From IMG/VR virus record IMGVR_UViG_2563366825_000028: DNA of 22,563 nucleotides; one strand, written 5' to 3'. The notes beneath the pieces were generated by a model. That model was not told the DNA's origin. It made no database searches and worked only from the letters and a program-made list of their open reading frames with translations. The position numbers and the translations under genes are program-made. Position 1 is the first letter of the stretch. Each line of letters begins with the position of its first letter. Origin of the DNA: a virus (lineage: Duplodnaviria; Heunggongvirae; Uroviricota; Caudoviricetes). Positions 2,927 through 18,328 of this stretch are shown one piece after another.

Positions 2927-4588
2927 TTATATGAAAAAAACCGCATATTCTTTCTTTTTCGGTTCCGGGTTAAGGGACATCAGGGAGACCGCATTGAACA
3001 GCGCCATCAGCGGGTCAATTTTTCCCCGTCCACTGGCCTGTTTGGTGATAAGAATGGCGTTACCTTTAGGCTCCACCCGGGCATTGCCGACACACCAGGC
3101 CATCAGGGGCTGGTCACCATGCACCAGCACCCCTTCAGCCAGTTTGCGCTCGGTGGTTTTAATGGCCCCGCCCAGTTTCCAGCCCTGGCTTATCCCCACC
3201 ACAATTCCGTCGGGGATCCCGGCTTCCGCCAGTGAATCCAGAATCTGCCCCACCCCTGACGGGTCAATACCGATATGGTCCAGTAACTCAGCCTCATGAA
3301 TGCGACGCACATATTCCGCCACTTCCGCCGTGTCATCCCCGATACGCCGGACAATGGTCATATCTCCACAGGCAACAAGATCCTGAAACCGGGACGCCTC
3401 GCTCTTCCGTCGGACCACCGCGGTTTCATGCGCCCAGGCATGGCCCCAGCCCAGCCATTCGCGGGTCTCCCGGTCACGCCCAATCACATACATCCCCAGC
3501 AGATCATCCAGCCCTCCGCCGTCAATCCCCACCGTCACCACATCAGCACGACGCAGGATATCGTCCAGGCTGATACAACGGCCCTGCTCTTCCCAGAAAT
3601 CAGCCCCCGCCCAGCGGTCAGAGCGCAGGGCAAGACCAATTTCCACATTGGCGTGTTTTGACATGAACCCCCGGAATGTCTCTTCACCGGCTTCCCGGGC
3701 TTTACGGTACTCCCGGTACAGAAAGGCCTCATCCACTGAATAGCCGAGATTCGGATTGACCATGGCGAGGTTTTCCATCAGCAGGTGAGCCCCGCTTTCC
3801 ACCATTTCAGGAGGGTGTTCAAATATCACCGGCAGAAAGTGCGGATCATGAATTTTGCCGTCGCGCACATCCCGGGCGTACTGCAGTTTCTGTCTGAACA
3901 CCCCGGCGGGCGGTTCATTCGACTGGGTGGTCGTATACACCACAAACCCTTCCGGGCGGGAGGCAAGGCCGCCGATGGCTTCACGTAACATGTCCTCCGC
4001 CTTGTACTGCTTGCCAAACAGCCACAACTCATCAATCAGCGTACCCACGGACTTGATACCGGACACCGTATTCGGATCGGCTGCCACCACCTTCAGGGTG
4101 GTGTCTGTCACCCTGTGGGTGATGGTCCGGATATGGGTCTGTACCTGGCAGAGGTCATCCAGATCATCGTCACGTCGTACCATATCCCGGGCAGGGTTGA
4201 AGGCGTTGGCCGCCACCTCCACAGTCGGGGCCAGAATCGTGTAACCCGCCGCCTGCCGCCAGTTCAGTAACAGCGCCGTCATCATGATCCCCGCGGCCAG
4301 CGTGGACTTCGAGTTTTTCTTGGGGATAAGGATAAAAACTTCCTTGATATGGCGTACACCGGTCTGCGCATCGTAGGAGCCAAACAGGGCCGCCACCAGG
4401 TCAAACACCCACGGTGCACAGGACTCCCCGAACGTAGGGCTACCAGGTGCATCCACAATCCGCAGTTGTTTAAAAATCGCCAGGGCATGTGCGGCCTCGT
4501 CCGGATAAATCGGATCCGGAATAATCGACAGCCCCTTTTTCAGGCGCTCAGCCCAGTCCGGGCAGGCTGTGCTCCATACAGGTATCAT
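2927..4588 (-). CDS. Terminase large subunit (Terminase_1-type ATPase/nuclease)
   Basis: 553 aa. Walker-A-like segment ILIPKKNSKSTLAAGIMMTALLL and C-terminal nuclease-domain motifs (VTVGIDGGG.DD, KIDPLMALFNAVSLM). The ATG at 4588 overlaps the terS stop (ATGA coupling). Confidence 0.9.
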   Translation of the reverse strand: MIPVWSTACPDWAERLKKGLSIIPDPIYPDEAAHALAIFKQLRIVDAPGSPTFGESCAPWVFDLVAALFGSYDAQTGVRHIKEVFILIPKKNSKSTLAAGIMMTALLLNWRQAAGYTILAPTVEVAANAFNPARDMVRRDDDLDDLCQVQTHIRTITHRVTDTTLKVVAADPNTVSGIKSVGTLIDELWLFGKQYKAEDMLREAIGGLASRPEGFVVYTTTQSNEPPAGVFRQKLQYARDVRDGKIHDPHFLPVIFEHPPEMVESGAHLLMENLAMVNPNLGYSVDEAFLYREYRKAREAGEETFRGFMSKHANVEIGLALRSDRWAGADFWEEQGRCISLDDILRRADVVTVGIDGGGLDDLLGMYVIGRDRETREWLGWGHAWAHETAVVRRKSEASRFQDLVACGDMTIVRRIGDDTAEVAEYVRRIHEAELLDHIGIDPSGVGQILDSLAEAGIPDGIVVGISQGWKLGGAIKTTERKLAEGVLVHGDQPLMAWCVGNARVEPKGNAILITKQASGRGKIDPLMALFNAVSLMSLNPEPKKKEYAVFFI

Positions 4589-5148
4589 CCGTTGCCCTCA
4601 TTATCGTTATTCACCACCAGTCGGGGTGGCGGTGGCACCGCAAAACGGTTAGCCGCTTTTTTCGCGGCATCACCTTTTGCCGATTTTTTCCCGGTATCCC
4701 CTTTTTTATGGTGCGTGAACTGCGCCAGACGCCAGGCCGCATCCAGTGCCAGTTTCGGATCAATGCAGAGGTTTTCCACCAGGATCCGCCCCATGGCTTT
4801 CACCGGATCGGGAAGACCATCCTCCATATATTCAATACCAGGAGACATCACCGCGGACGGTGGCATCTCCGGATTGTTTTCGTCCGGCTGTGGTATTGCA
4901 GCCGCCTCACGGCGACGGGGTTTATCCTCCTGCTCTGATTTTTTCTGCCGGTAAACAGGAACCTCATCCACCTCCACCGTTTCGCACTGTTTACGGGCTA
5001 TAAACGCGAGCACCTCCGGATCTTTTGCCAGCTGCGAGCCTTTAACCCTGGCGGTCTTCGCCGAATAACCGGCGGCAATGGCTGACGCTGTTTTGTTTTT
5101 CCCGGACATGAGCGCCAGCGCAAATTTTCGTTTTTGCGTTGTCAGCAC
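4585..5148 (-). CDS. Terminase small subunit (Terminase_2 / P27-type)
   Basis: N-terminus LTTQKRKFALALMSGKNKTASAIAAGYSAKTARVKGSQLAKDPEV fits the HTH signature of Terminase_2 small subunits. GTG start with GGAGGAGG upstream; the stop overlaps the terL start. Confidence 0.75.
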   Translation of the reverse strand: MLTTQKRKFALALMSGKNKTASAIAAGYSAKTARVKGSQLAKDPEVLAFIARKQCETVEVDEVPVYRQKKSEQEDKPRRREAAAIPQPDENNPEMPPSAVMSPGIEYMEDGLPDPVKAMGRILVENLCIDPKLALDAAWRLAQFTHHKKGDTGKKSAKGDAAKKAANRFAVPPPPRLVVNNDNEGNG

Positions 5149-5437: not shown

Positions 5438-5803
5438 TCACAGTCCGATGATATCGTCTGCCCTGCCACGACCTCCGGACACTTCCGGCAACGTCGGGTC
5501 CGGCATACCACTCGCCGCTTCACTGGCTGACTTCTGGCGATGACATTCAGTACAGAGCGTCCAGAGATTCGTCTCCTCATTACCACCACCGAACTGAAGT
5601 GCAATTCGGTGATCGAGTTCACTGTCACAGAGGTCAACCACACGCCCACAGAGACAGCACTGCCCGGCGTCCCTCAGCCAGATATGACGCTTGAGGGAAA
5701 CACGTGCACTGCCACTGACACGACGCTGTTCCCCCTTCAGAATATTCACCCGTCGGGTATTCAGTGTTTTGATTCTGCTCTGGAGTGTACGAAGCTCAGC
5801 CAT
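5438..5803 (-). CDS. HNH homing-type endonuclease (terminase-associated)
   Basis: 121 aa with the HNH motif CCLCGRVVDLCDSELDHRIALQFGGGNEETNLWTLCTECH. ATG at 5803 with GGGGA RBS. Sits directly upstream of terS, as HNH proteins do in cos-packaging phages. Confidence 0.85.
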   Translation of the reverse strand: MAELRTLQSRIKTLNTRRVNILKGEQRRVSGSARVSLKRHIWLRDAGQCCLCGRVVDLCDSELDHRIALQFGGGNEETNLWTLCTECHRQKSASEAASGMPDPTLPEVSGGRGRADDIIGL

Positions 5804-7867: not shown

Positions 7868-8098
7868 GGTGTGCATGACGTCAGGACTAACCGATGAGTT
7901 TTAAATCAGCTTTTCGGTGTTTTTTCTGATCGGTATAAAAATTTTCATGTGGACCGATGCTAAGGAGGTAGAGCTCAAGTTTATCGTCAAGCCAGCTGTA
8001 ACCCAGAAGCACCAGTTGATTATTCAGCTGAAATTTATGCACACTGAACCGCCCCGGAAATCCTGGAGACTAAACTCCCTGAGAAAGAGGTAAACAGG

Positions 8099-8425
8099 AT
8101 GACTAAAAATACTCGTTTTTCCCCCGAAGTCCGTCAGCGGGCGATTCGTATGGTTCTGGAAAGTCAGGATGAATATGACTCACAGTGGGCGGCAATTTGT
8201 TCCATTGCCCCAAAGATTGGCTGTACGCCGGAGACTCTGCGTGTCTGGGTTCGCCAGCATGAGCGGGATACCGGGGGCGGTGATGGTGGGCTCACCAGCG
8301 CTGAACGTCAGCGTCTGAAAGAGCTGGAACGTGAAAATCGTGAACTGCGCCGCAGTAACGATATCCTTCGCCAGGCTTCCGCTTATTTTGCGAAGGCGGA
8401 GTTCGACCGCCTCTGGAAAAAATGA
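8099..8425 (+). CDS. IS3-family transposase OrfA (HTH / leucine-zipper part)
   Basis: 108 aa, [65 protein letters not shown], matching IS629/IS1203 OrfA as I recall it. The A6 run 8417-8422 at the orfA/orfB overlap is a possible -1 frameshift slippery site. Confidence 0.9.
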
Positions 8426-9312
8426 TGCCACTGCTGGATAAGCTGCGTGAGCAGTACGGGGTCGGACCGGTATGCAGCGAACTGCATATTGCCCCGTCAA
8501 CGTATTACCATTGTCAGCAACAGCGACATCATCCGGATAAACGCAGTGCCCGTGCGCAGCACGATGACTGGCTGAAGAGAGAGATACAGCGCGTATACGA
8601 TGAAAATCATCAGGTGTACGGTGTGCGTAAAGTCTGGCGTCAGTTGTTACGGGAAGGAATCAGGGTGGCCAGATGTACAGTGGCGCGCCTCATGGCGGTT
8701 ATGGGACTTGCCGGTGTTCTCCGGGGTAAAAAGGTCCGCACTACCGTCAGCCGGAAAACCGTTGCCACAGGTGACCGCGTAAACCGTCAGTTCGTGGCAG
8801 AACGTCCTGACCAGCTGTGGGTGGCTGATTTTACTTACGTCAGCACATGGCAGGGCTTCGTCTATGTGGCGTTTATCATTGATGTGTTTGCCGGATACAT
8901 CGTGGGGTGGCGGGTCTCATCGTCTATGGAAACGACATTCGTGCTGGATGCGCTGGAGCAGGCGTTGTGGGCCCGTCGTCCGTCTGGCACCATCCATCAC
9001 AGCGATAAAGGCTCTCAGTATGTGTCACTGGCCTATACGGAGCGACTAAAAGAAGTCGGATTACTGGCATCAACAGGGAGTACAGGCGACTCGTATGACA
9101 ACGCGATGGCTGAGAGCATCAATGGTCTTTACAAAGCGGAGGTAATACACCGTAAGAGCTGGAAAAACCGTGCAGAAGTGGAACTGGCCACACTAACGTG
9201 GGTGGACTGGTATAACAATCGACGATTGCTGGGAAGGCTGGGCCATACTCCTCCGGCAGAAGCAGAAAAAGCTTATTATGCTTCCATCGGAAACAATGAT
9301 CTGGCAGCCTGA
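8422..9312 (+). CDS. IS3-family transposase OrfB (DDE integrase-core catalytic domain)
   Basis: 296 aa with rve-type motifs ([59 protein letters not shown]). The ATG overlaps the orfA stop (ATGA). Confidence 0.9.
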
Positions 9313-9975: not shown

Positions 9976-10623
9976 ATGAAAACGATGCATGAAATTATCG
10001 GGGAAAGGATCAAGTCCCTTAGAGAAGCTAAAGGACTTAGCCAGGCTCAATTGGCCAAGCTTTGCGGCTGGGCTGCGCCTTCACGCCTGGGGAACTACGA
10101 GTTAGGAACAAGAAAGGTTAGCGCGGATGACGCGCTGGTTCTTGGGGCGGCACTCGGCGTATCTCCGGCAAAAATAATGTTTGGCGAGGATTCAGACGCT
10201 GTATTTCGCCAATATGAGTACCCGTTATTTTCTTCAGTGCAGGCCGGGCCGTTTTCGGAGGTTGGAAGCTACACAGCAAGCGATGCAAAGGCATGGGTCC
10301 CAACGACCACAAAAGCCAGCGAAAAAGCTTTCTGGCTTGAGGTGAAAGGCCATTCTATGACTGCGCCACAGGGCGTAAGGCCGAGTTTTCCTGAGGGTAT
10401 GCTGATACTCGTTGATCCGGCCGAGCCGGTAGAGTCTGGGGATTTCTGCGTGGCTTCTGCAAATGGTGATTCAGAGGCAACGTTCAAGAAGTATGAGAAG
10501 GATGCAGGGGTTAGTTACTTGGTTCCATTGAATCCGGCATACAGAACCCTGGACTGCGATCACACATGCCGCATCATAGGCAAGGTAGTTAAGGCTCAGT
10601 GGCCTGAAGAGACGTTTGGATGA
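9976..10623 (+). CDS. cI: CI-like prophage repressor (HTH domain + LexA-like S24 autopeptidase domain)
   Basis: 215 aa with an N-terminal HTH ([24 protein letters not shown]). The C-terminal domain is very like lambda CI: cleavage-site region [10 protein letters not shown], catalytic Ser in [21 protein letters not shown], and the end ...[17 protein letters not shown] 9985 is an alternative start. Confidence 0.9.
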
Positions 10624-10673
10624 TGGATGGTCGCAGAGATGCTCGTAGAGCATACAGCGATGCAGGAGAATTT

Positions 10674-11108
10674 ATGGCACTTAATTTAGAAAGAATATCT
10701 TTTATAACCCCATTTGATAGCAGCGAAGAACCCAACCAACCGACGCTTAATTTTACATGCAATGAATTTCCTGCGCGGCTATCGATTGATTTCAGGGTTG
10801 GTATGATCGGGTTGAAACCAAATTCAAGATATAATTTGGGTATTATGGTAATCCCCGCGCACCTAATTATAAAAAAAGGTGAGGAAATTCAATTCCCTGA
10901 CGGCTCTTCGGAATCAGTTTCACTTTTCATCGATACGAAAGATAGCCATTTTGAAACAGGGGTTGGCGGACAGGTAATAGTAACATTGAAAGAAATTAGG
11001 GTCCCAGCTAAAGGGCTGTATAGTGTTATAGGGATATTGCAAGATAATGAAGACCCTAAAAATGAACTTCATAAAAATGAATCATTTTTCACCGTAGAGC
11101 TATTATGA
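10674..11108 (+). CDS. Hypothetical soluble protein A (144 aa) of the cI-linked cassette
   Basis: ATG 10674 with AGGAG 5 nt upstream, MALNLERISFITPFDSSEEPNQPTLNFTCNEFPARLSIDFRVGMIGLKPNSRY... Sequence becomes AT-rich from about 10670. No family recognised. Its stop overlaps the start of B (ATGA at 11105-11108). The track ORF begins at 10620, overlapping the cI stop. Confidence 0.7.
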   Translation: MALNLERISFITPFDSSEEPNQPTLNFTCNEFPARLSIDFRVGMIGLKPNSRYNLGIMVIPAHLIIKKGEEIQFPDGSSESVSLFIDTKDSHFETGVGGQVIVTLKEIRVPAKGLYSVIGILQDNEDPKNELHKNESFFTVELL

Positions 11109-11725
11109 GTGACGACAGTAATTTAAATAATCATGGAAAGCAAGACACCAACATATCTGAAAGCCGGAGGTTGAAGGTTGTTGGCGGTTCCGATTTTGAG
11201 GCTGAATTTGATAATTCTCCCACCAAGGTGCAAAATAATTACATAAAACCGCCACAAACGGAGGAAGAAGTGGGAACGATCAGCAGAGAGGAACTTGATG
11301 CTCGCTTAGCTGCTAATAAAGCAGAGATGGAGTCTATTGCTTCTTCCATTAGGACTGACATGGCTCTATCTCGTGAAAGCGTTAATGTCCAATTTGCATC
11401 ACTTAATGCAGCCATAAGCTCTCTATCGTCCAAGATCGATGGAAAGATGGATAGCGCTGCTGGCGATATAAAAGCAATTAATGGGAGATTCGAAGGAATT
11501 CAAGGACAAATAACAGGGGTTAATACCGCAATTAGTGGTGTTCAGTCGGGTATTTCTATACGATTAGCCATTTTTAGTGTCATTATCGCTGTAATAGTTG
11601 CGATTCCCGGGCTGGTATCAGCTTTAAAGTCAGACCACGCACCTTTGCAACAGCCTTCCACTTTGCAAGCGCCGCCACAAAATACCCAGCCAACAGACAA
11701 CAAAAAAATCACTCCCCAGCATTAA
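11105..11725 (+). CDS. Hypothetical tail-anchored coiled-coil membrane protein B (206 aa) of the cI-linked cassette
   Basis: Polar N-terminus, then a long Ala/Ser/Gly/Ile-rich repetitive segment (ASLNAAISSLSSKIDGKMDSAAGDIKAINGRFEGIQGQITGVNTAISGVQSG), one hydrophobic helix ISIRLAIFSVIIAVIVAIPGLVSAL, and a Pro/Gln-rich tail. Followed directly by an intrinsic terminator. Confidence 0.75.
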   Translation: MSDDSNLNNHGKQDTNISESRRLKVVGGSDFEAEFDNSPTKVQNNYIKPPQTEEEVGTISREELDARLAANKAEMESIASSIRTDMALSRESVNVQFASLNAAISSLSSKIDGKMDSAAGDIKAINGRFEGIQGQITGVNTAISGVQSGISIRLAIFSVIIAVIVAIPGLVSALKSDHAPLQQPSTLQAPPQNTQPTDNKKITPQH

Positions 11726-13762: not shown

Positions 13763-14059
13763 ATGAACGCTTATTACATTCAGGATCGTCTTGAGGCTCA
13801 GAGCTGGGCGCGTCACTACCAGCAGATCGCCCGTGAAGAGAAAGAGGCAGAACTGGCAGACGACATGGAAAAAGGCCTGCCCCAGCACCTGTTTGAATCG
13901 CTATGCATCGATCATTTGCAACGCCACGGGGCCAGCAAAAAAGCCATTATCCGTGCGTTTGATGACGATGTTGAGTTTCAGGAGCGCATGGCAGAACACA
14001 TCCGGTACATGGTTGAAACCATTGCTCACCATCAGGTTGATATTGATTCAGAGGTATAA
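13763..14059 (+). CDS. gam: Gam host-nuclease (RecBCD) inhibitor, short GamS form (98 aa)
   Basis: [56 protein letters not shown]... is near-identical to lambda GamS as I recall it. AGGAG RBS 7 nt upstream. Confidence 0.95.
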
Positions 14060-14064
14060 AACGG

Positions 14065-14850
14065 ATGAGTACAGCACTCGCAACGCTGGCAGGGAAGCTG
14101 GCTGAACGTGTCGGCATGGATTCTGTCGACCCACAGGAACTGATCACCACTCTTCGCCAGACGGCATTTAAAGGCGATGCCAGCGATGCGCAGTTCATCG
14201 CATTGTTGATCGTCGCCAACCAGTACGGCCTTAATCCGTGGACGAAAGAAATTTACGCCTTCCCTGATAAGCAGAACGGCATCGTTCCGGTGGTGGGCGT
14301 TGATGGCTGGTCCCGCATCATCAATGAAAACCAGCAGTTTGATGGCATGGACTTTGAGCAGGACAATGAATCCTGTACATGCCGGATTTACCGCAAGGAC
14401 CGTAATCATCCGATCTGCGTTACCGAATGGATGGATGAATGCCGCCGCGAACCATTCAAAACCCGCGAAGGCAGAGAAATCACCGGACCGTGGCAGTCGC
14501 ATCCCAAACGGATGTTACGGCATAAAGCCATGATTCAGTGTGCCCGTCTGGCCTTCGGATTTGCTGGTATCTATGACAAGGATGAAGCCGAGCGCATTGT
14601 CGAAAATACTGCATACACTGCAGAACGTCAGCCAGAACGCGACATCACTCCGGTTAACGATGAAACCATGCAGGAGATTAACACTCTGCTGATCGCCCTG
14701 GATAAAACATGGGATGACGACTTATTGCCGCTCTGTTCCCAGATATTTCGCCGCGACATTCGCGCATCGTCAGAACTGACACAGGCCGAAGCAGTGAAAG
14801 CTCTTGGATTCCTGAAACAGAAAGCCACTGAGCAGAAGGTGGCAGCATGA
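14065..14850 (+). CDS. bet: Bet (Red-beta) single-strand annealing recombinase
   Basis: 261 aa beginning [66 protein letters not shown], near-identical to lambda Bet (from memory). Confidence 0.97.
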
Positions 14851-15527
14851 CACCGGACATTATCCTGCAGCGTACCGGGATCGACGTGAGAGCTGTCGAA
14901 CAGGGGGATGATGCATGGCACAAATTACGGCTCGGCGTCATCACCGCTTCAGAAGTTCACAACGTGATAGCAAAGCCCCGCTCAGGAAAGAAGTGGCCTG
15001 ACATGAAAATGTCCTACTTCCACACCCTGCTGGCTGAGGTTTGCACCGGTGTGGCTCCGGAAGTTAATGCTAAGGCGCTGGCCTGGGGAAAACAGTACGA
15101 GAACGACGCCAGAACCCTGTTTGAATTCACTTCCGGCGTGAATGTTACTGAATCCCCGATCATCTATCGCGACGAAAGTATGCGCACAGCCTGCTCTCCC
15201 GATGGTTTATGCAGTGACGGCAATGGCCTTGAGCTGAAATGCCCGTTTACCTCCAGGGATTTCATGAAGTTCCGGCTCGGTGGTTTCGAGGCCATAAAGT
15301 CGGCTTACATGGCCCAGGTGCAGTACAGCATGTGGGTGACGCGAAAAGATGCCTGGTACTTTGCCAACTATGACCCGCGTATGAAGCGTGAAGGCCTGCA
15401 TTATGTCGTGATTGAGCGGAATGAAAAGTACATGGCGAATTTTGACGAGATGGTGCCGGAGTTCATCGAAAAAATGGACGAGGCACTGGCTGAAATTGGT
15501 TTTGTATATGGGGAGCAATGGCAATGA
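14847..15527 (+). CDS. exo: Exo (Red-alpha) 5'-3' dsDNA exonuclease
   Basis: 226 aa beginning [65 protein letters not shown], near-identical to lambda Exo (from memory). Start overlaps the bet stop. Confidence 0.97.
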
Positions 15528-15682
15528 AGCATCCTCACGATAATATCCGGGTAGGCGCGATCACTTTCGTCTACTCCGTTACAAAGCGAGGCTGGGTATT
15601 TCCCGGCCTTTCTGTTATCCGAAATCCGCTGAAAGCACAGCGGCTGGCTGAGGAGATAAATAATAAACGGGAGAGTGTATGA
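15524..15682 (+). CDS. Small hypothetical protein (52 aa), translationally coupled on both sides
   Basis: ATG 15524 overlaps the exo stop (ATGA) and its stop overlaps the next start (ATGA at 15679-15682). [52 protein letters not shown]. Not in the ORF track (<60 aa). Confidence 0.45.
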
Positions 15683-16431
15683 TTCATTTTCACGGTGGTC
15701 CAATAACTCCCGATACCTGTGCGTTGAAAGCCTGGAAAGGCAGACACGCATTCATCAGTTTTGCTAATCCAGCTCAGATTGATCTGGCTTCCGAAGTCAC
15801 CCAATCATTTGCTCTTGATAATGGTGCATTCACATTCTGGACAAAAAACAAGGCCATAGACTGGAATGAATATTACAGATTTGTTGAACGCTGGGGTAAT
15901 CACCCTCGTTTCTCATTCGCGGTTATCCCGGATGTTATCGGCGGAACCAGTGAAGAGAATGACGCCCTGATTGCGGCATGGCCTCACGGTAAATTTATTG
16001 GTGCTCCGGTGTGGCACATGAACGAACCAGATGAGCGATTTATTCGTCTGTGCCATGAGTTTCCCCGCGTCTGCATCGGCTCGATGGGGGAATACGATGC
16101 AAAACGACCGAGAGCGTGTCGGGCTAAACTACGCGATCTTATACGTCATGTTGTAGATCAGTACGGCTACCCAATCACCAAGATTCATGGGTTACGGATG
16201 TTAAATAAAGACATTTTTACTCATGTACCGCTTTCGTCTGCAGACAGCACGAACGTCGCAAGAAATATAGGCATCGACAAATCCTGGGTAGGTTCGCCAT
16301 ATGCTCCCGCAAGTAAAGAAACCCGTACGCAAGTTCTTGTGGAACGCATTGAATCATTCAACAGTGCCAGTTCACTTAATTACAACGCTGAACGGGACGT
16401 CTTTACCCCTCAACTGGCATTCGAAGTGTGA
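15679..16431 (+). CDS. Hypothetical protein (250 aa); weak resemblance to TGT/DpdA-like transglycosylases, unverified
   Basis: Clean ORF in the exo-xis operon. LDNGAFTF and IGSMGEYD segments loosely recall the TGT motifs around the catalytic Asp residues (DSGGFQ, MGVG.PED). This is a memory-based guess; I make no functional claim. Confidence 0.8.
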   Translation: MIHFHGGPITPDTCALKAWKGRHAFISFANPAQIDLASEVTQSFALDNGAFTFWTKNKAIDWNEYYRFVERWGNHPRFSFAVIPDVIGGTSEENDALIAAWPHGKFIGAPVWHMNEPDERFIRLCHEFPRVCIGSMGEYDAKRPRACRAKLRDLIRHVVDQYGYPITKIHGLRMLNKDIFTHVPLSSADSTNVARNIGIDKSWVGSPYAPASKETRTQVLVERIESFNSASSLNYNAERDVFTPQLAFEV

Positions 16432-16438
16432 GGCCAAT

Positions 16439-16654
16439 ATGACAATAGAACATAATAACGCCCTTCGCAGCATTGCCCGTCAGGCTAATTCTGAAATCAA
16501 AAAAGCCAGACAGCAGTTTCCGGATAAAAACGTCGATGACATTTGCCGTAGCGTACTGAAGAAGCACCGCGAAACGGTAACGCTGATGGGATTCACACCG
16601 ACTCACTTAAGTCTGGCAATCGGTATGTTAAACGGCGTCTTTAAGGAACGGTGA
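16439..16654 (+). CDS. Hypothetical protein (71 aa)
   Basis: ATG 16439 with GAGG 6 nt upstream; MTIEHNNALRSIARQANSEIKKARQQFPDKNVDDICRSVLKKHRETVTLMGF... The track ORF extends upstream in frame from 16301. Confidence 0.6.
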   Translation: MTIEHNNALRSIARQANSEIKKARQQFPDKNVDDICRSVLKKHRETVTLMGFTPTHLSLAIGMLNGVFKER

Positions 16655-16676
16655 ACATGAAAAGCAAAATCATCAG

Positions 16677-16697
16677 GGAGCTACAGGCTCCTTTTTT
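16677..16697 (+). terminator. Rho-independent terminator inside the exo-xis operon
   Basis: GGAGC (16677-16681), loop TACAG, GCTCC (16687-16691), then TTTTTT (16692-16697). Confidence 0.6.
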
Positions 16698-16974: not shown

Positions 16975-17786
16975 GCGAAATTAACTATCAGGAACTGCGT
17001 GAAAAGGCAGAGAAAGCAACTAAAGGAAGCTACATCGTAGGGCATACATCTGTTAACCAACACGGCAATTTAACAGGAGTTTTTGTTTGTCAAAAATGGA
17101 AAGGAGAACCCGGTGGCGTAATTGCAGAATGTCACGTTAACTGCCTGGTTGAAACAGATGCTCAGGCTTATGCAAACGCTGAATTCATAGCAGAGGCTAA
17201 CCCGGCTACCGTGCTGGCACTGCTGGATGAACGGGAAAGAAACCTGCAATACATCAAAAGCCGCGATCAGGAGAACGAGGATATTGCGCTAACGGTAGGG
17301 AAGCTGAGAGTTGAGCTTGAGGAAGTAAAACAACACGCTGAAGAATTATCCGAAACCAAGGCTGTTCGTAACCAATGGCGGCCAGATATTTGCCCAATAA
17401 CCGGACGTGCATTTTTCATGTGGATTGAGCATCCAACATTGGGAAATGTGCCGACATATGGTGGCCCATTAGATAGTTACACCATTCCAACAAAGGACGG
17501 TGACGGTGAGTTTTCATGTGAGCGTTACGATCATGATTTTGGCGGTTGGGTAGAAAGCGAATGTCTTGGGTTATATCTGATTGATGATAGAGAACAATGC
17601 AGGGTCTACGAACTGGAGGAACGCGTTAAGGAACTGGATGCTCGGGAAATATCGCTCCCGGAACGTAGCAGCATGCTTCATCGAACAGATTTTCACGATG
17701 ATTACCAAACGGTAATGGCATACAAAGTTTCTGAAGTCATCGCTGCAATCCGCGCCGCAGGCATTCGCATCAAAGGAGGTGAGTAA
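16971..17786 (+). CDS. Ea22/Ead-like protein (exo-xis region family)
   Basis: 271 aa; N-terminus MSEINYQELREKAEKATKGSYIVGHT recalls the Ead/Ea22 N-terminal motif (..LRE.AEKAT.G.W..). Start overlaps the upstream stop. Confidence 0.65.
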   Translation: MSEINYQELREKAEKATKGSYIVGHTSVNQHGNLTGVFVCQKWKGEPGGVIAECHVNCLVETDAQAYANAEFIAEANPATVLALLDERERNLQYIKSRDQENEDIALTVGKLRVELEEVKQHAEELSETKAVRNQWRPDICPITGRAFFMWIEHPTLGNVPTYGGPLDSYTIPTKDGDGEFSCERYDHDFGGWVESECLGLYLIDDREQCRVYELEERVKELDAREISLPERSSMLHRTDFHDDYQTVMAYKVSEVIAAIRAAGIRIKGGE

Positions 17787-17962
17787 TGCGTGTGGCATGT
17801 ATCGGCTTGTTACCGTACCCGACTCGTTTTTGGGCTTCTGCGCTAATTGCAAAGCCACATGTCCTGATGGCTGACAACATCATCCCGGCACCAAAGCGCC
17901 GCCATACCGGTATTGCAGCGGCACGACGAGCAGCAAAGAAACGCAGGAGAACAAAACGATGA
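17786..17962 (+). CDS. Small basic hypothetical protein (58 aa)
   Basis: ATG overlaps the upstream stop (TAATG) and its stop overlaps the next ATG (ATGA). C-terminus RRAAKKRRRTKR. No RBS to speak of; coding status uncertain. Not in the ORF track. Confidence 0.35.
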   Translation: MRVACIGLLPYPTRFWASALIAKPHVLMADNIIPAPKRRHTGIAAARRAAKKRRRTKR

Positions 17963-18135
17963 AAAACCGTAAGGCAAAAATTCTGTTAGCTCGCAGAAAC
18001 GGTGTTGGGGTCTGGCGATGGTTGAGGATTAGTAACAGACGAGTGAGGTTGACGGGGTGTTGCGGGGTGATGGGCACAGTTGTTGCAAAAAGCCTAGCGC
18101 GTCACAGAACAGGCGGAAGAAAGGGTACGCAGTAA
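17959..18135 (+). CDS. Small basic protein (58 aa), paralog 1 of a tandem pair
   Basis: AGGAGA RBS 8 nt upstream. MKNRKAKILLARRNGVGVWRWLRISNRRVRL... shares MKNRKAK-L--R...W-LR-SNRRV-L with the next ORF. Not in the ORF track (<60 aa). Confidence 0.45.
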   Translation: MKNRKAKILLARRNGVGVWRWLRISNRRVRLTGCCGVMGTVVAKSLARHRTGGRKGTQ

Positions 18136-18136
18136 G

Positions 18137-18328
18137 ATGAAAAACCGTAAAGCAAAGATGCTTATCTCCCGTGTATACAGACGTTGCTATCCCAGCCAGT
18201 GGTTGAGAGTTAGCAATCGCCGTGTGGTGTTGTACTTATATTCTGGAATTGCCAGAGAGGGAATCAAAGATAAGCGCAGCGCGGCGCAAAACCGCTGGAA
18301 AAACCACTTACGCACTAAAGGAGCCTGA
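18137..18328 (+). CDS. Small basic protein (63 aa), paralog 2 of a tandem pair
   Basis: MKNRKAKMLISRVYRRCYPSQWLRVSNRRVVLYLYSGIAREGIKDKRSAAQNRWKNHLRTKGA; diverged tandem duplicate of 17959..18135. Confidence 0.5.
   Translation: MKNRKAKMLISRVYRRCYPSQWLRVSNRRVVLYLYSGIAREGIKDKRSAAQNRWKNHLRTKGA

Follow-up and report, generated by a model that had tools for sequence, protein, structure and literature searches.

Described 7-deazaguanine transglycosylases and the window gene

That phages counter restriction enzymes and Cas9 by 7-deazaguanine modification of their DNA is well established, and 7-deazaguanine DNA is the target of the newly described defences GrwAB and Dag glycosylases. Here we examine a dpdA-like gene, related to those of the transglycosylases that insert such bases into DNA, in a 22,563-nt stretch of DNA from a virus of the class Caudoviricetes (IMG/VR record IMGVR_UViG_2563366825_000028; the whole stretch is called the window below). 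An initial annotation, made from the letters alone, had pointed to a 250-aa open reading frame (ORF) in an exo-xis region, and this frame is present exactly as it was described, with no competing or comparable reading frame on the opposite strand of 15679-16431:

15679-16431, + strand: dpdA-like gene, 250 aa, ATG start; predicted minimal transglycosylase of the tRNA-guanine transglycosylase (TGT) fold (TIM barrel), from the gamma-proteobacterial 'singleton' phage DpdA clade

The closest described proteins are the singleton DpdAs. Hutinet et al. 2019 reported a 'third group' of 76 phages and a gamma-proteobacterial cluster of singleton DpdAs and proposed that host preQ0 is relied upon, and a 2023 paper reported 50 siphoviruses with DpdA only. 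Supplementary Data 1 of Hutinet et al. 2019 gives YP_009147480 as the DpdA of a 'DpdA-only' phage, with HK106, BTP1, SPN3UB, SEN1, PEAT2 and 7-11 alongside. This accession is gp34 of Shigella phage SfI, named 'queuine tRNA-ribosyltransferase' in RefSeq, and it is 99.6% identical to the window protein; the gene itself is 99.7% identical in SfI and 100% identical in Escherichia phage PhiR5_1. The members of this group (SfI, HK106, BTP1, SPN3UB, SEN1, PEAT2 and 7-11) are of the same family, lack preQ0 or G+ synthesis genes of their own and have hosts that make queuosine de novo, as here. No essential difference separates them from the window gene, whose copy lies in a defective-looking prophage; only 7-11 has been analysed chemically, with traces of dADG (2′-deoxy-7-amido-7-deazaguanosine). 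Judged by its sequence, the window gene has nothing out of the ordinary for its clade, which is known by prediction. The initial annotation had considered a lone DpdA of this kind notable. The reading as a lone DpdA is supported, but given the listing and the proposal of Hutinet et al. 2019, and the RefSeq and PHROGs entries, it is correct and already published. No experimental work on the gamma-proteobacterial singleton clade was found in the literature. What is new here are small additions, namely a residue-by-residue map of the active site, the finding that the zinc site is missing, fusions to QueD and to DNA adenine methylase (Dam) domains, and a recurrent adjacency to methylases.

The DpdA1 proteins of the Queuovirinae (Escherichia phages CAjan and 9g, Pseudomonas phage iggy) are encoded in a queE-queC-queD-folE-dpdA cluster, and in these phages 16-32% of G is replaced, at GA/GGC motifs. 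Protection by the modification against restriction and other defences that target DNA has been shown for CAjan, 9g and iggy, and deletion of CAjan dpdA leads to the loss of dPreQ0 from CAjan phage DNA. The window protein shares with DpdA1 the same PHROG (887), matching active-site Asp, His and Gly residues and the absence of zinc-site cysteines, but identity is only 18-21% and the window gene stands alone in a temperate-phage early operon.

Other described enzymes of this fold are more different. The bacterial DpdA of the S. Montevideo Dpd restriction-modification (R-M) system (7UI4) is a 413-aa protein with insertions Ins1, 2, 3 and 8 and a CxCx2Cx22H zinc site, none of which is found in the window protein; it needs the DpdB ATPase and is encoded with dpdB-K in a host R-M system, whereas the window gene lies in a phage early operon and its product has no PADLOC DpdA match. 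TGTs (bacterial Tgt, ArcTGT, QTRT1; PF01702) have no detectable sequence similarity to the window protein, which is devoid of their zinc site, tRNA-binding insertions and C-terminal domains and for which DNA is the expected substrate. Because the window protein departs from both bacterial DpdA and TGT in sequence, zinc site and insertions, we file it with phage DpdA. Cap10 of the type IV cyclic-oligonucleotide-based anti-phage signalling system (CBASS; 9NTN, released 2025) is a TGT-fold protein concerned with protein-linked 7-deazaguanine, and its His-Asp pair is shared with H170/D189 of the window protein. It works with the QueC-like Cap9 on the N-terminus of a CD-NTase in a defence operon, and no such partners are found among the main ORFs of the window.

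Family membership, fold and active site

Homologs of the window protein numbered 6,182 at E ≤ 1e-3 (90% clusters), with 906 representatives of 50% clusters. Two alignments were used: A1, of 54 full-length homologs with 31-90% identity, and A2, of nine sequences including CAjan DpdA and other divergent phage members. The window protein matched PHROG 887, 'queuine tRNA-ribosyltransferase', with an E-value of 2.1e-99 over residues 1-245, and CAjan DpdA matched the same PHROG at E 8e-96. The A1 profile aligned to CAjan DpdA by hhalign with 98.9% probability (E 3.7e-17, 175 columns), and a pairwise BLASTP between the two proteins gave E 1e-4. At this level of similarity the resemblance to DpdA is far beyond chance, and we hold with high confidence that the window protein is homologous to transglycosylases of the DpdA family. 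The DpdA-like, TGT-fold protein foreseen by the initial annotation is thus borne out by the PHROG match, the hhalign result and the structural matches to DpdA and TGTs given below.

The route suggested there for recognising it, a Pfam search with PF01702, came back empty. The window protein had no Pfam (PF01702 included), NCBIfam or PADLOC match, and none of the 54 A1 homologs had a TGT match in Pfam. Searches of PDB sequences by phmmer and by profile hmmsearch returned noise only (HipT and GCN4, E ~1), CAjan DpdA itself had no match in PDB sequences or in Pfam, and hhalign of the A1 profile with the single sequence of E. coli Tgt gave no signal (0.8% probability). None of these sequence methods detects the window protein as a TGT; the link to TGTs runs through phage DpdA and through structure. 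Pfam found no extra domains in the long relatives (P0180, P0182, P0005 and others).

The AlphaFold2 model of the window protein consists of eight beta/alpha units, with a mean predicted local distance difference test score (pLDDT) of 92.8 and a predicted template modelling score (pTM) of 0.89, so that the TIM barrel anticipated by the initial annotation is present in the model. A Foldseek search of the PDB returned generic TIM barrels. In BFVD, 31 viral matches were obtained at E ≤ 1e-3, and those with names were mostly phage 'queuine tRNA-ribosyltransferase'. The structural matches in the PDB, with their match scores, were the following:

Match 1: 9NTN, Cap10 (type IV CBASS), 16.0, 10% identity
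Match 2: 7UI4, DNA preQ0 insertase DpdA, 15.2, 17% identity
Match 3: 1IQ8, archaeosine TGT, 14.1
Match 4: 3UNT, bacterial TGT, 13.6

Conservation within the family was then placed on this model. D47, H170, S187, D189 and S190 are invariant in A1, while D85, H113 and G134 each occur in 94% or more of its sequences; the same active-site positions are still invariant in A2, CAjan DpdA included. The model places them where successive strands end on the C-terminal side (D47 on beta3, D85 on beta4, H113 on beta5, G134 on beta6, H170 and L172 on beta7, D189 on beta8), a layout that is as in bacterial DpdA and TGT. The motifs and their predicted roles are:

15814-15837, + strand: LDNGAFTF, residues 46-53, end of beta3; D47 (15817-15819) predicted general acid/base, F51 (15829-15831) predicted to stack on the base
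15928-15945, + strand: PDVIGG, after beta4; D85 present in 53 of 54 homologs, aligned by BLASTP to CAjan D105 and, by strand order, putatively equivalent to D130 of bacterial DpdA
16009-16026, + strand: VWHMNE, at beta5; H113 (16015-16017) predicted to recognise the base, present in 53 of 54 homologs; H132 in CAjan DpdA and putatively H181 in bacterial DpdA
16075-16098, + strand: IGSMGEYD, residues 133-140, glycine-rich loop after beta6, in TGTs the pocket for the 7-substituent; G134 shared by 51 of the 54 homologs, with E138 and D140 variable
16180-16203, + strand: KIHGLRML, at beta7; invariant H170 (16186-16188) predicted hydrogen-bond partner of the nucleophile, L172 predicted to stack on the base
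16234-16251, + strand: SSADST, at beta8; D189 (16243-16245) predicted nucleophile that would form the covalent enzyme-DNA intermediate, within the invariant S187-x-D189-S190

These assignments draw on what is known of bacterial DpdA, in which D95 is the general acid/base, F99 stacks on the base, G206-G207 form the glycine loop, L236 stacks on the base and D256 is the nucleophile, whose mutation abolishes guanine exchange. The initial annotation had likened LDNGAFTF to the DSGG-type motif around a catalytic aspartate. This holds: the invariant D47 aligns with D63 of CAjan DpdA (LDSGAF), G49, A50 and F51 are invariant in A2, and the D-x-x-x-F spacing of D47 and F51 equals that of D95 and F99 in bacterial DpdA. 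The other segment singled out, IGSMGEYD, was misassigned as a catalytic-aspartate motif, for it corresponds to the glycine loop after beta6, its acidic residues E138 and D140 vary, and the likely nucleophile is D189, after beta8. G134-S135 of this loop aligns with G153-G154 of CAjan DpdA both by BLASTP and by hhalign, and D189 aligns with CAjan D206. The PADLOC model of bacterial DpdA aligns weakly with CAjan DpdA (E 1.3e-3; CAjan residues 147-209 on model positions 200-259), and with this offset CAjan G153-G154 and D206 fall on G206-G207 and D256 of the bacterial enzyme. In enzymes of this fold the nucleophilic aspartate is held by a residue of the preceding strand, as in the H226/D248 pair of Cap10 and the Tyr/Asp pair of TGT, and the spacing of H170 and D189 matches that of the Cap10 pair. 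Phage DpdA is defined by a TGT-like (beta/alpha)8 barrel carrying three active-site aspartates and a conserved histidine. The window protein has the barrel in its model, and the residues are present as D47, D85, D189 and H113.

One part of the described enzymes has no counterpart. TGT and bacterial DpdA carry after beta8 a large insertion, pinned by the CxCx2Cx22H zinc site, that makes up a large part of the nucleic-acid-binding surface. In the window protein D189 is followed by only about 60 residues, and its only cysteines (14, 125, 132 and 147) are not conserved. CAjan DpdA also has no cysteine after the one that precedes its nucleophile, which makes the zinc-less barrel a phage DpdA trait. 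The window protein is shorter still than the 306-aa CAjan DpdA, a difference that includes, in A2, a missing insertion of about 45 residues after beta8.

Operon position, lone status and DNA-methylase association

The dpdA-like gene is embedded among genes of lambda type:

13763-14059: lambda-type gam, upstream of the dpdA-like gene
14065-14850: lambda-type bet, upstream of the dpdA-like gene
14847-15527: lambda-type exo, upstream of orf60a
15518-15682, + strand: orf60a/DUF1317, 54 aa, directly upstream; PHROG 1998, DUF1317 in SfI and orf60a in PhiR5_1 (context only)
15670-15682, + strand: GGAGAG ribosome-binding site and ATGA overlap of the orf60a stop with the dpdA-like start, read directly from the sequence
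16439-16654, + strand: orf61-like gene, 71 aa, starting 8 nt past the dpdA-like stop; PHROG 303, orf61 in PhiR5_1 (context only)
16675-16693: terminator-like hairpin after the orf61-like gene, from a terminator scan

With gam-bet-exo-orf60a before it and orf61 after it, the dpdA-like gene rides as a passenger in a lambdoid prophage's early-left (pL) operon, which is N-antiterminated. In phage lambda the corresponding slot between orf60a and orf61 is occupied by orf63. The ATGA overlap is a predicted translational coupling of the dpdA-like gene to orf60a inside this operon, and the same 54-aa ORF, ending 3 nt into the dpdA-like gene, was found in 24 of 80 related loci. These loci come from 80 related viral contigs (1.11 Mb in total) that were found with a 15-sequence alignment, with proteins 64-100% identical; as the loci are not mutually independent, the methylase adjacencies below are given as counts. 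Further downstream of the orf61-like gene follow DksA/TraR-like and Ea22-like genes and the integrase gene. A 117-aa ORF at 16301-16654, which overlaps the final 131 nt of the dpdA-like gene and appears as coding sequence gp33 in the SfI annotation, was rejected as a real gene, the 71-aa orf61 at 16439 being better supported by PHROG 303 and by the PhiR5_1 annotation.

The gene was also expected to be alone in its operon, and this is what was found. PHROG scans of the main ORFs of the window revealed no folE, queC, queD or queE, and tblastn of CAjan FolE, QueD, QueC, QueE and YhhQ against the 80 related viral loci returned nothing. Linkage to preQ0 biosynthesis genes is thus missing; this very lack defines the published 'DpdA-only' group and is not a ground for exclusion from phage DpdA.

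Fusions and neighbours provide another view of the family. In a phage-like metagenomic contig, a distant member (P0244, L005:2840-3847) consists of a QueD/PTPS domain fused to a DpdA-like domain. In a P2/186-like prophage, a D12-class Dam methylase is fused to a DpdA-like domain (P0229, L006:8001-9266) just upstream of replication gene A, and phage SEN1 carries an unfused dpdA-like gene in the same slot. A homolog followed by a C5-cytosine methylase gene is found in Pseudomonas phage Epa33 (L007:7740-9830). In addition, a DNA adenine methylase gene is the immediate same-strand neighbour in 22 of the 80 related loci, and these methylases belong to three unrelated families:

MT-A70: downstream in 11 loci
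PF05869 Dam: upstream in 5 loci and downstream in 4
D12 class: upstream in 2 loci

Six different DNA-methylase juxtapositions, together with the QueD fusion, support a DNA-modifying, deazaguanine-related role, and suggest a 'DNA-modification slot' shared by the dpdA-like gene and methylases.

As to the rest of the window, the PHROG scan of its main ORFs identified head and terminase genes, an HNH endonuclease, a Rha-like regulator, an IS3-family transposase, cI, N, recombination genes, Ea22-like genes and an integrase. The gene cI (9976-10623) and the small terminase gene (4585-5148, - strand) lie only ~4.7 kb apart, so that the cro-cII-O-P-nin-Q-lysis modules are seemingly missing and the prophage looks defective. 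An IS629-type element of the IS3 family of insertion sequences occupies ~8000-9312 (transposase ORFs 8099-8425 and 8422-9312), between the Rha/KilA-N-like regulator gene and cI. The HNH endonuclease gene (5438-5803, - strand) adjoins the small and large terminase genes, a common HNH-terminase packaging arrangement. Directly downstream of cI lie two overlapping genes, 10620-11108 (PHROG 5893) and 11105-11725 (PHROG 5820). The slot after cI holds rexAB in lambda and SfI and a HipA-like pair in PhiR5_1, and the two genes may be an immunity-region exclusion or defence cassette. Finally, a run of small, very basic ORFs extends over 17786-18328 and includes the adjacent paralogs 17959-18135 (58 aa) and 18137-18328 (63 aa), both starting with MKNRKAK.

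Predicted activity and alternative readings

By analogy with CAjan DpdA, bacterial DpdA and TGT, the following course of events can be proposed. The dpdA-like gene would be transcribed in the N-antiterminated pL operon after infection or prophage induction, coupled to orf60a. A target deoxyguanosine in double-stranded DNA would flip into the TIM barrel at its C-terminal face, where D189, held by H170, would attack C1′ and displace guanine with D47 as general acid, leaving a covalent enzyme-DNA intermediate. A free 7-deazaguanine base, recognised by D85 and H113 and sandwiched by F51 and L172, would then be bound and inserted with D47 as general base, as in the double-displacement mechanism of TGT. 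With no folE/queCDE in the phage, the host queuosine pathway must supply this base, and the most likely donor would be preQ0 made by host FolE-QueD-QueE-QueC. A fraction of the guanines in replicating phage DNA would thereby be converted to dPreQ0 or to a derivative such as dADG, and the modified DNA may blunt restriction and similar DNA-targeting defences, giving partial protection. The use of host preQ0 has a precedent, since DpdA2 of Vibrio phage nt-1, expressed alone in wild-type E. coli, inserted ~900-1600 dPreQ0 per million nucleotides, whereas no dPreQ0 was inserted when the host was a queD mutant. We infer from the described enzymes the DNA substrate, the inserted base, the level of modification and the anti-restriction role; actual insertion of host-made preQ0, or of a derivative, into DNA by the enzyme is, on this analogy, probable, with less assurance than its place in the family.

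Several points weigh against such an activity. The large beta8 insertion (Ins8) and the CxCxxC...H zinc site are absent from the window protein, and its predicted isoelectric point is neutral (7.15). Its residues were mapped onto bacterial DpdA and TGT through strand order and transitive alignments instead of an explicit superposition, so that the correspondence is a putative one. DNA of Salmonella phage 7-11, whose lone DpdA is ~35% identical to the window protein and the nearest one chemically tested, contained only ~50 dADG per million nucleotides and no dPreQ0, and phage Orion, also with a lone DpdA, had no modification. Moreover, the defective-looking prophage that carries this copy may offer no replicating phage DNA to protect.

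The same observations bear on a reading in which the protein is homologous to DpdA but functionally divergent, making a rare-site epigenetic or regulatory mark, using another host base such as preQ1 or 7-carboxy-7-deazaguanine (CDG), or merely exchanging or excising guanine, with no bulk anti-restriction modification. In phage 7-11 only ~0.02% of G is replaced, by dADG and not dPreQ0; the barrel of the window protein is minimal and has no Ins8/Zn surface; and a module for site-specific marking would be in keeping with how often site-specific adenine methylases are paired with these genes. Likewise, VH7D DpdA2 shows that DpdAs can take preQ1, preQ0 or CDG, and Hutinet et al. allow for functional divergence of singleton clades. 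Yet the catalytic set is invariant over hundreds of cluster representatives, which argues for retained transglycosylase chemistry, and DpdA1 proteins such as that of CAjan also do without the zinc-site cysteines while ~30% of G is modified; we regard divergence as unlikely, though well worth keeping in mind. A more specific form, in which the lone DpdAs of temperate enterobacterial phages would draw on the small host preQ0/preQ1 pool to place a 7-deazaguanine mark at rare specific sites or on a non-canonical target, and would be one interchangeable member of a 'DNA-marking' cassette alongside the adenine methylases often fused to or next to them, seems to us doubtful, somewhat more so than divergence in general.

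The remaining readings place the protein outside DNA modification. That it is a true queuine/preQ1 tRNA-ribosyltransferase, acting on host or phage tRNA and altering translation during infection, would agree with its RefSeq and PHROG product name and with a fold common to TGT. This name, however, is inherited by homology only; besides the missing Pfam TGT matches among the 54 family members and the missing hhalign signal to E. coli Tgt, the zinc subdomain and the Ins8 that bind the anticodon stem-loop are lacking, the closest validated relatives act on DNA, the fusions and neighbours are DNA methylases and the host already has Tgt, all of which makes a tRNA substrate very improbable. We give still less credence to a Cap10-like enzyme that handles protein-attached 7-deazaguanine (deazaguanylation), for instance to subvert type IV CBASS or QatABCD-type defences: although Cap10 heads the structural matches, identity to it is 10% against 17% to bacterial DpdA, the His-Asp pair is also found in the DNA-modifying CAjan DpdA, no QueC-like gene turned up in the window, tblastn with CAjan QueC returned none from the 80 related loci, no CD-NTase is present among the main window ORFs or the neighbour clusters inspected, and sequence profiles place the protein with phage DpdA. 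Nor do we put much more than nominal weight on an unrelated TIM-barrel enzyme whose TGT/DpdA likeness would be convergent or an annotation artefact. The empty Pfam and NCBIfam searches, the absence of PDB sequence matches even with a profile, the silent comparison with E. coli Tgt and the generic barrels returned by Foldseek from the PDB would all suit it, but it is largely refuted by the hhalign E-value of 3.7e-17 to CAjan DpdA, by the placement of both proteins in one PHROG at E<1e-95, by the coincidence of the family-conserved residues with those aligned to the proposed active site of validated CAjan DpdA, by the existence of the QueD fusion and by BFVD matches that are phage TGT-like proteins.

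The reading we prefer, a phage DpdA supplied by the host, bears on whether transglycosylase-only phages, many of them temperate phages of E. coli, Shigella and Salmonella, modify their DNA via host precursors, and the window gene is typical of this class. Among 5,426 complete E. coli genomes, 100 carry it at 99% identity or more, in every case on the chromosome, and it is also present in the serotype-converting Shigella phage SfI. If the marking cassette considered above were real, it would be a new site-specific epigenetic or anti-defence device present in ~2% of complete E. coli genomes. If the lone DpdAs do modify DNA via host precursors, ordinary lambdoid prophages would alter their DNA chemistry on induction, with consequences for restriction, nanopore sequencing and horizontal transfer.

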